This document shows positions 15,599 through 15,938 of a stretch of 17,361 bases of DNA, piece after piece; the stretch's first letter is position 1; the number at the start of each line of letters is the position of its first letter. Below the pieces are notes generated by a model. It was not told the DNA's origin and ran no database searches. It saw only the letters and a list, made by a program, of their open reading frames with translations. The stretch is from a virus. The position numbers were made by a program, and so were the translations under genes. The stretch is taken from UHGV virus genome UHGV-2175977; one strand, 5' to 3'.

Positions 15599-15938
15599 CT
15601 AAATTTCCAGGCTCGTGCTCACGGCCTGCTTCATATCCGCGCCAGGTCCGTCGCGATTAAACCACAGGGCTTTTCAGGAGGGGCCACAGAGAGCGTCACA
15701 CTGACCATTCCCTGTGGCTTGTGCTGAGATCCGGTCAGTGAAATTGTGCAAAGGGAATCTTCGGGAGCTTTGGGCAGAATGTCAGTTATTGATGTTGACA
15801 TCCTCCACACCCTGAAGGTCGGGGTTTTACGGCGCACTGGATAAAATACCTGAACAAACAGCCTCTTCGTGCGGCTTTTTTATAACGAGATTCTGACTTG
15901 CTGCCGTCCGTAATGTCGGATGGCGGAGGTGAGGGACT

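Follow-up and report, generated by a model that had tools for sequence, protein, structure and literature searches.

In the window studied here, a 17,361-nt stretch (UHGV virus genome UHGV-2175977), an Escherichia coli lambdoid prophage is represented by its early-right and late portion. We analysed the ~340 bp (15599-15938) that lie between its tRNA genes and its holin gene. In Stx (Shiga toxin) phages this position holds the stx genes, as an initial annotation of the window had pointed out, and Stx2 phages do share the first two tRNAs, which are 93.5% identical to their ileZ/argN, with the homology stopping at 15523. The same annotation saw no credible open reading frame (ORF) in the spacer and took it for a deletion scar or for a regulatory or small-RNA region. 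We consider it very probable that the region is a transcribed non-coding spacer of the late operon, made up of the scar of a lost tciA-tciB (tciAB) cargo, a collapsed copy of the insertion sequence (IS) IS609 and a hairpin that controls the holin gene, and not a new RNA gene.

The genes and features of the locus are collected in Table 1. In the four genomes inspected, the Prokaryotic Genome Annotation Pipeline (PGAP) of NCBI annotates nothing between the tRNAs and the holin gene. The absence of a credible ORF is thus confirmed, and the sole long one, of 68 amino acids (aa), has no match in Pfam (Pfam was searched, the large protein databases were not).

Table 1. Features of the region and its surroundings, in window coordinates
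Feature	Position	Strand	Basis or remark
RusA	13253-13618		
Antiterminator Q	13609-14283		Pfam Phage_antiter_Q, E 1e-90
pR'-like promoter	about 14288-14316		Promoter/terminator scan
Intrinsic terminator downstream of Q	14370-14393		
237-aa membrane ORF	14534-15247		Several hydrophobic stretches; without Pfam family; post-Q terminator on one side, tRNAs on the other
tRNA-Ile2(CAT)	15370-15445		ARAGORN
tRNA-Arg(TCT)	15447-15523		ARAGORN
Decayed tRNA-Thr(TGT), third array unit	15526-15599	+	Just outside the region; homology of the common array stops at its 3' end
Collinear 5' leader part	15600-15683	+	Contiguous alignments (72-75%) and multiple alignment with six phages
Inverted 36-bp leader segment	15684-15719	-	Opposite-strand match to leaders
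Last leader bases (..GCTGAG) and deletion junction	15720-15728	+	Alignment to four relatives (L198, L183, L146, L179)
tciB tail and former downstream sequence	15727-15793	+	72-83% identity, five loci
Solo IS609-like element (IS200/IS605 family), 50 bp	15795-15844	- (read left end, LE, to right end, RE)	End matches to full copies
Weak terminator-like hairpin AGCC..GGCT + T6	15860-15881	+	Inside the orphan ~50 bp 15845-15895
Stem-loop, 3' arm with holin Shine-Dalgarno GGAGG (15925-15929)	15896-15930	+	Stem 10+4 bp, with 15901-15910 paired to 15917-15926; loop 15911-15916
Holin, 90 aa	15939-16211	+	ORF list; annotated 'phage holin family protein' WP_029400649.1

A broken leader and the last codons of tciB

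The first clue to the origin of the region came from a permissive BLAST search against plasmids, in which 15597-15678 gave a weak match to lambdoid prophage DNA. The relative obtained from the plasmid match, used as a query, revealed a conserved segment of ~165 bp between the tRNA array and tciA, a TerB-like gene. Positions 15600-15728 correspond to the 5' two-thirds of this leader, which joins the tRNA array to the tciA/tciB cargo in many lambdoid phages, including JLK-2012, Evi and Klebsiella phages. The order Q, tRNAs, leader, tciA, tciB, holin is found in JLK-2012, Evi and Klebsiella phage 5 LV-2017. From the tRNAs of the window the alignment continues unbroken to 15678/15683 at 72-75% identity (many IMG/VR contigs, phage Evi). 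A pattern scan of IMG/VR gave more than 100 copies of the leader and, among them, a set of 59 distinct intact leaders.

The collinear part begins with a hairpin at 15608-15628 (-10.4 kcal/mol, z-score -2.4), the homologue of the terminator that closes the tRNA array of the relatives (GGCTCGC..GCGGGCC + T6); its T-run has been lost and now reads CTTCATAT. The same part also holds the remnant of a GCGCC..GGCGC-type hairpin and the CCACAGGG arm (15662-15669) discussed below. At about 15727, the leader (..CCTGAG) is joined to tciB (..AG/ATCC) with a microhomology of 2 bp (AG). From 15727 the window reads AGA TCC GGT CAG TGA, that is, R S G Q stop, and the tciB of a relative, L198, ends ..ATT AGA TCC AGT GAT TAG. 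Relative to L198, 596 bp are missing, consisting of the 3' third of the leader with the tciA ribosome-binding site, tciA, and tciB minus its last four codons. This collinear leader with its jump to the last codons of tciB bears out the deletion scar that was one of the initial proposals.

The window matches the last tciB codons and the 50-60 nt after them at 72-83% identity in five loci, each collinear with the leader, and in a local BLAST search against ~1.5 Mb of fetched loci this match reaches E values down to 5e-5. The hairpin that follows tciB in the relatives (AAAGGCA..TGCCTTT) has decayed in the window (-7.6 kcal/mol, z-score -1.0). In Pfam terms, tciA is TerB and tciB is DUF3927; neither the ORF list nor Pfam gives a TerB ORF within the window. 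Neither stxA/stxB nor remnants of them were found, and the similarity of the region to Stx phages is confined to the 50-bp IS remnant. On the sequence evidence, the lost cargo is tciAB, not stx. Since other contigs hold different cargos after the same leader, the slot is a real exchange point, which has been emptied here. In the same slot of phage JLK-2012, downstream of tciB, there is an Rfam STnc100 match (L094 3325-3497, 107 bits) that is absent from the window.

The 8-bp inverted repeat that the initial annotation reported in this part is present as described, with CCACAGGG at 15662-15669 and CCCTGTGG at 15710-15717, 40 nt apart. The two arms have homologues in conserved stretches of the leader of other phages, and the repeat exists because a 36-bp piece of the old leader, 15684-15719, underwent a hairpin-loop inversion. 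This piece is identical to Klebsiella-type leaders at 32/36 positions, on the opposite strand only. Across the 59 leaders, the best ungapped match has a median of 27/36 for the reverse complement vs 18/36 for the forward orientation, and flipping the piece lifts every global alignment score, by 12-20 points. In an intact leader, the segment spans AGCCATAGGG to CTCTGTGG, and its two ends form an imperfect inverted repeat. After the flip, the former right arm CTCTGTGG of the leader helix reads CCACAGAG at 15684, while a former internal CCATAGGG-like motif reads CCCTGTGG at 15710 and pairs perfectly with the left arm CCACAGGG at 15662. The resulting hairpin, 15662-15717, has a predicted energy of -22.8 kcal/mol (z-score -2.05), and a perfect inverted repeat of at least 8 bp within 60 nt arises in 22% of dinucleotide shuffles of the region.

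Upstream of the leader, the first two tRNAs of the array (Ile2, Arg) are intact and the third unit has decayed. Compared with the intact tRNA-Thr of UPEC 26-1, this third unit carries 14 substitutions, in the D, anticodon and T arms, and its CCA has become CTA. ARAGORN with default settings and Rfam do not detect it and report two tRNAs only; at a relaxed ARAGORN threshold it receives a poor forced 'Asn' call, and no hidden tRNA other than this decayed copy was found at that threshold. The second tRNA, Arg(TCT) in the window, is annotated as Lys in two otherwise near-identical modules (L009, L238) that differ by 8-14 clustered substitutions at 15467-15513. The difference looks like a tRNA allele swap via recombination, or a remodelling of the anticodon arm.

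The intact leader is of some interest in its own right. It is ~140 nt long and highly conserved (L094 2528-2669, L095 2523-2665, L092 2509-2651 and 56 other loci), apart from a G-run that ranges from 4 to 12 G, and scans of three relatives gave no Rfam family for it. It can be modelled as a pseudoknot with the helices P1 (CCACAGAG/CTCTGTGG), P2 (GGGTGAGC/GCTCACCC) and P3 (GGAGTGGTC/GATCGCTCC), in which 96.8% of cells are paired and three pairs are compensatory, all of them within P3. RNAalifold, applied to the 59 leaders, returns a nested structure with one compensatory pair only. The covariation in favour of a pseudoknot is only suggestive, because the leader sequences amount to about three closely related types; a fetch of TciA proteins aimed at divergent leaders brought in relatives 96-100% identical only. 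On this model, the intact leader between the tRNAs and tciA may be a regulatory RNA of an undescribed, pseudoknotted type, and the window would then hold a broken copy: the 3' arms of P2 and P3 (..GGCTCACCC..), the tciA Shine-Dalgarno sequence and tciA itself went with the deletion. In phages of the PPompW_132418 type, an IS110-family element, ISEc20, is inserted within the leader directly after the G-run (L097 3069-4527); the lysis genes are missing from these phages, and the terminase follows ISEc20.

The holin hairpin and the terminator question

The most significant structure of the region is at its 3' end. The stem-loop at 15896-15930 has a predicted energy of -21.5 kcal/mol (z-score -3.6), only 2/200 shuffles are as good, and the whole GGAGG is paired within it. 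The initial annotation, which described the region as carrying structured features, did not list this one; the three that it did list are present, but none of them goes beyond chance (22% of shuffles for the 8-bp repeat, and z-scores of -1.2 and -1.0 for the two hairpins discussed below).

The holin gene that follows has a dual start, Met1-Arg2-Met3, encoded by ATG AGA ATG at 15939-15947 (ATG at 15939 and 15945), and its relatives begin with MKM or MRM. In Pfam, the protein resembles the HP1 and P21 holin families only weakly. Related holin genes, with 72-78% protein identity, were found at 80 loci, and the homology begins at 15917-15926. In the segment from -45 to -1 upstream of these genes, a hairpin with the ribosome-binding site in its 3' arm is predicted in 29/29 distinct regions (mean z-score -1.7). 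The hairpin ends 3-8 nt before the first ATG (5-8 nt in 28/29), and its stem sequences vary (CCCC/GGGG, CCCG/CGGG, TCCGG/CCGGA, CTAC/GTAG, CTCCCGC/GCGAGGAG and others). By analogy with known holin leaders, this hairpin is likely to be regulatory, and the only part of the region that is; we infer a role in translation. The stem of the window is about twice as stable as that of any of the 28 other distinct holin leaders (-7 to -13 kcal/mol), a difference that would predict unusually tight repression and low or delayed translation of the holin. Between the holin and lysozyme genes lies an ORF on the opposite strand (16368-16745), which RefSeq treats as an incomplete hypothetical pseudogene; as a reverse ORF inside the lysis cassette, it indicates that the cassette is interrupted by foreign DNA.

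Directly before the holin hairpin is an orphan stretch, 15845-15895, for which a phage BLAST search (E<=10) and a local BLAST search against all fetched loci gave no relatives, or the same prophage only. Three exact-pattern scans, two of one genome per species and one of IMG/VR, were likewise negative or returned the same prophage only. The weak terminator-like hairpin with T6 that the initial annotation had noticed lies in this stretch. It consists of AGCC (15860-15863), GGCT (15873-15876) and the T6 run (15876-15881), with four pairs plus one isolated pair and a predicted energy of -5.3 kcal/mol (z-score -1.0). In spite of its T6, it does not have the G+C-rich stem of at least five pairs that goes with the T-run in an intrinsic terminator, and it is absent from the output of the terminator scan. 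In several related holin modules, the equivalent position is occupied by a strong terminator, ~25 nt before the Shine-Dalgarno hairpin. Judged by its position, the hairpin of the window may be a decayed terminator of this kind.

It could also be argued that this hairpin and the one at 15608-15628 are working intrinsic terminators that insulate the lysis genes from tRNA or cargo transcription in the lysogen, and that this is the main function of the spacer. The clear terminator that relatives have directly after the tRNA array, the strong one found before the Shine-Dalgarno hairpin of some holin modules, and the position and T6 run that the window has kept all speak for this possibility. Nevertheless, the first hairpin has no T-run, the second has just 4-5 pairs at an energy and z-score close to those of shuffled sequence, and both fail the terminator scan, so that we regard working terminators as rather unlikely.

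A solo IS609 element

Between the tciB tail and the orphan stretch is a solo copy of an IS element, which we take to be IS609 from the insQ of K-12. Its 50 bp consist of an RE tip TTGACATCCTCCAC, a single subterminal hairpin CCCTGAAGGTCGGGG and an LE tip TTTTACGGCGCACTGGATAA, fused to one another. Aligned to two IS609 copies, 15791-15824 corresponds to the end next to insQ and 15804-15846 to the end next to tnpA, with identities of 88-93%. In these full-length copies (L003 and L005), 787-820 adjoins insQ/tnpB and 2501-2543 adjoins tnpA; the insQ-side tip is TTGACATCCTCCACGCCCTGAAGGACGTGG and the tnpA-side tip is GCCCTGAAGGACGGGGTTTTACGGCGCACCGGATAA. The segment 15795-15844 matches hundreds of sites in E. 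coli chromosomes, plasmids and phages, and two chromosomal loci each have a pair of such matches, which mark the ends of a full element whose tnpA and insQ/tnpB genes are divergent. No tnpA (Y1 transposase) or tnpB ORF is present in or near the region. On the minus strand, the element ends ..GTCAA and is preceded by TTAT.

The IS200/IS605 family is known to have solo or miniature derivatives, similar to miniature inverted-repeat transposable elements (MITEs) or palindrome-associated transposable elements (PATEs). Known transposition in this family requires a hairpin at each end. A full IS609 copy has two hairpins ~1.7 kb apart, and the solo element has one only (15809-15825; -8.9 kcal/mol, z-score -2.5), common to both tips. 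Because a single hairpin is shared by both ends, the element looks like a full copy that has collapsed internally, and not like a miniature element that still works. Its simplest origin would be a deletion inside a full-length IS609 that took out the DNA from one of the two hairpins, which are direct repeats, to the other.

The element sits exactly where the homology downstream of tciB stops and the holin module begins. The second inverted repeat of the initial annotation, ATGTCA/TGACAT, is present at 15779-15784 and 15796-15801, and the boundary of the element runs between its arms: TGACAT belongs to the tip of the element, and its partner ATGTCA is ordinary flanking sequence. The hairpin that they could form is at chance level (-4.7 kcal/mol, z-score -1.2).

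The same fusion, of 50-52 bp, is found in HK97 (20864-20915, right after tfa) and 933W (57867-57919, near L0135), and also in Stx1 phages, namely at L236 2501-2551 (the Stx1a phage Stx1_1649) and in H-19B (M17358 68-118). Homology between HK97 and other phages breaks off precisely at the two ends of the element. These recurrences suggest another possibility, that the 50-bp fusion is a non-autonomous element which continues to be moved into lambdoid phages, or to be copied into them by recombination, and which would seed or mark module boundaries there. We found no clean empty site for it: the relatives of HK97 break off at the ends of the element without spanning it, and in the Stx1d strain L319 the same two flanks enclose 77 nt of unrelated sequence. 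We consider such mobility improbable. In the Stx1a phages, the solo IS609 lies between a Fur-box-like sequence, GAATATGATTATCATTTTC, and the ATG of stx1A, and so within the presumed 5' leader of stx1.

Reading of the region and its known counterparts

With its parts identified, the region aligns to its relatives only piecewise, and the plain end-to-end alignment with their ordinary intergenic DNA, against which the initial annotation had weighed its proposal, was not obtained. The small-RNA half of that proposal did not hold up. It would have the region encode a small regulatory RNA or a cis-acting element of its own, in which the CCACAGGG/CCCTGTGG hairpin is ended by the T6 hairpin at 15881. 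The first of these hairpins is fairly stable, the parent leader is conserved and possibly structured according to the pseudoknot model, and a T6 run does follow ~160 nt downstream. Against this, Rfam gives no match at E<=1 on either strand of 15524-15938, a promoter scan of both strands gave nothing like a sigma-70 promoter within the region, and the fold of the whole region is no better than that of shuffles (z-scores of -1.2 and -0.8 for the two strands). Moreover, two of the three leader helices have lost their 3' arms to the deletion, the supposed terminator is at chance level, and a gene tail and an IS remnant fill the space between it and the hairpin. A small RNA is accordingly very unlikely.

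A site-specific invertible switch at 15684-15719, which would control read-through into the lysis genes by phase variation, is less probable still. Imperfect inverted repeats (AGCCACAGGG / CTCTGTGG..) do flank the segment, and all relatives have it the other way round, but it has one orientation in all carriers (~20 complete genomes and three contigs) and the other in 59/59 distinct intact leaders. The flanking repeats are only 8-10 bp long and imperfect, no invertase gene is annotated within 19 kb around the region, and a one-off hairpin-loop inversion or template switch suffices for the data. Since the carriers are uniform and all relatives show the opposite state, we favour a one-off inversion over a switch, which we rejected because the orientation is uniform within each lineage. 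Finally, we give next to no credence to a coding function of the 68-aa ORF (15631-15837, minus strand) or another small ORF: it is the longest in the region, yet it has a GTG start and is left out by PGAP, and as it runs antisense through the IS end, the gene tail, the deletion junction and the inverted segment, crossing all junctions, it cannot predate these recent accidents.

The carriers of the region are few and alike. The 1-kb stretch that contains it is present at 99.8-100% identity in 15/5426 complete E. coli genomes, and four further complete E. coli genomes match at 98.9% from 15369 onward; the majority of the carrier genomes are of chicken origin, and strains 135, DG341-1 and ECCNB12-2 are among the lysogens with this module. 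Three contigs carry the region as well, and over the region itself the ~20 complete genomes and these contigs are at least 99-100% identical. Because two prophage backgrounds, which have an Arg or a Lys allele of the second tRNA with 8-16 clustered substitutions between them, show 0 differences across 15526-16063, the whole scar is, as far as these sequences tell, one recent haplotype that was spread by recombination. Evolutionary intermediates, with the inversion and no deletion or with the deletion and no IS, were found neither in an IMG/VR scan, which returned the same prophage and one other contig (L090), nor in a metagenome scan, which returned two near-identical copies only. We rejected L090 as an intermediate, as BLAST aligns nothing of it to the window at E<=1e-5 and it looks unrelated by eye around the 20-mer. 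Elsewhere in the prophage, some carriers of the module lack the 237-aa ORF and others have it (in L009, the tRNAs directly follow Q), and the RefSeq annotation of an identical locus, L001, places a type II toxin-antitoxin pair, RelE/ParE-ParD, in the early region (11222-11847, minus strand).

From these observations we infer a history in which the ancestor would have carried a tRNA array, a terminator and structured leader, tciA-tciB, and then the holin gene. A 36-bp piece of the leader would have flipped between its own quasi-inverted repeats, after which ~596 bp between the leader and the last tciB codons would have been lost. A copy of IS609 just downstream, at the boundary of the holin module, would have collapsed to the 50-bp end-fusion with its single hairpin, and the third tRNA and the two flanking terminator hairpins would have decayed. 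In the lysogen, transcripts from pR' would stop at 14393, and the hairpins that remain may weaken any transcription that enters the lysis genes from tRNA or cargo promoters. Upon induction, Q-modified RNA polymerase starting from the pR'-like promoter would read through the 237-aa ORF, the tRNAs, the scar and the hairpins to the lysis genes. The hairpin and dual start would then tune the output of holin and antiholin, and hence the timing of lysis, with the remains of the leader, of tciB and of IS609 as passengers.

Several points count against this account of the region as a scar with a holin control hairpin. The stretch 15845-15895 gave no relatives outside the same prophage, and 15729-15793 aligns to the tciB tail at just 72-83% identity, over 36-67 nt, so that the assignment leans on the collinearity of five loci as much as on E values. 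The order of the four events is conjecture, as would be a causal role of IS609 in the deletion. The region may yet give rise to a discrete transcript, and, because all copies are identical, selection on any part of it cannot be inferred.

The region provides a base-by-base example of a lambdoid cargo slot that has been emptied and remodelled by inversion, microhomology deletion, IS collapse, and decay of a tRNA and terminators, with a putative hairpin for the control of holin translation retained through all of these steps. It is of use as a case of phage mosaicism and for annotation, where suitable labels for the stretch are tciAB remnant, solo IS609 and holin leader. The solo IS609 in the 5' region of stx1 and the conserved tciA leader without an Rfam family are less ordinary side products of the analysis. 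Taken one by one, the components are all of known kinds, namely the deletion scar in a moron slot, the inversion in a quasi-palindrome, the solo remnant of an IS200/IS605 element, the tRNA pseudogene and the holin leader similar to that of lambda S. The combination is undescribed but unsurprising, and it reveals no new mechanism.

Short inversions mediated by hairpins, through template-switch mutations in quasi-palindromes, are a known mutational mechanism. As in such events, the 36-bp segment lies between imperfect inverted repeats and has been exactly reverse-complemented with its hairpin potential kept; the mechanism in our case would be deduced from a single end product. The IS remnant resembles IS609 in its two terminal sequences and its subterminal imperfect palindrome, all of which have matches in full-length E. 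coli copies, and it differs in having no transposase genes, a single hairpin for both ends and a length of 50 bp.

For lambda S, a dual start gives rise to the S107 antiholin and S105 holin pair (PMC9636201). The holin of the window is similar in that a basic residue lies between its two in-frame starts (M-R-M) and a stem-loop directly upstream involves the Shine-Dalgarno sequence, although it is not a homologue of lambda S. The stem-loop upstream of lambda S, 'sdi', reportedly partitions initiation between the two starts; the likeness of the holin leader to it is known here from sequence and predicted folds, and an effect on the ratio of start sites would be an analogy. Finally, the locus as a whole corresponds to the moron slot between Q and S of lambdoid and Stx phages, with the same order of Q, pR'/tR', tRNAs, cargo (stx, tciAB or others) and holin. 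Unlike the filled slots, the one in the window is empty, and all that remains is the 5' part of the leader together with four final codons from the cargo.

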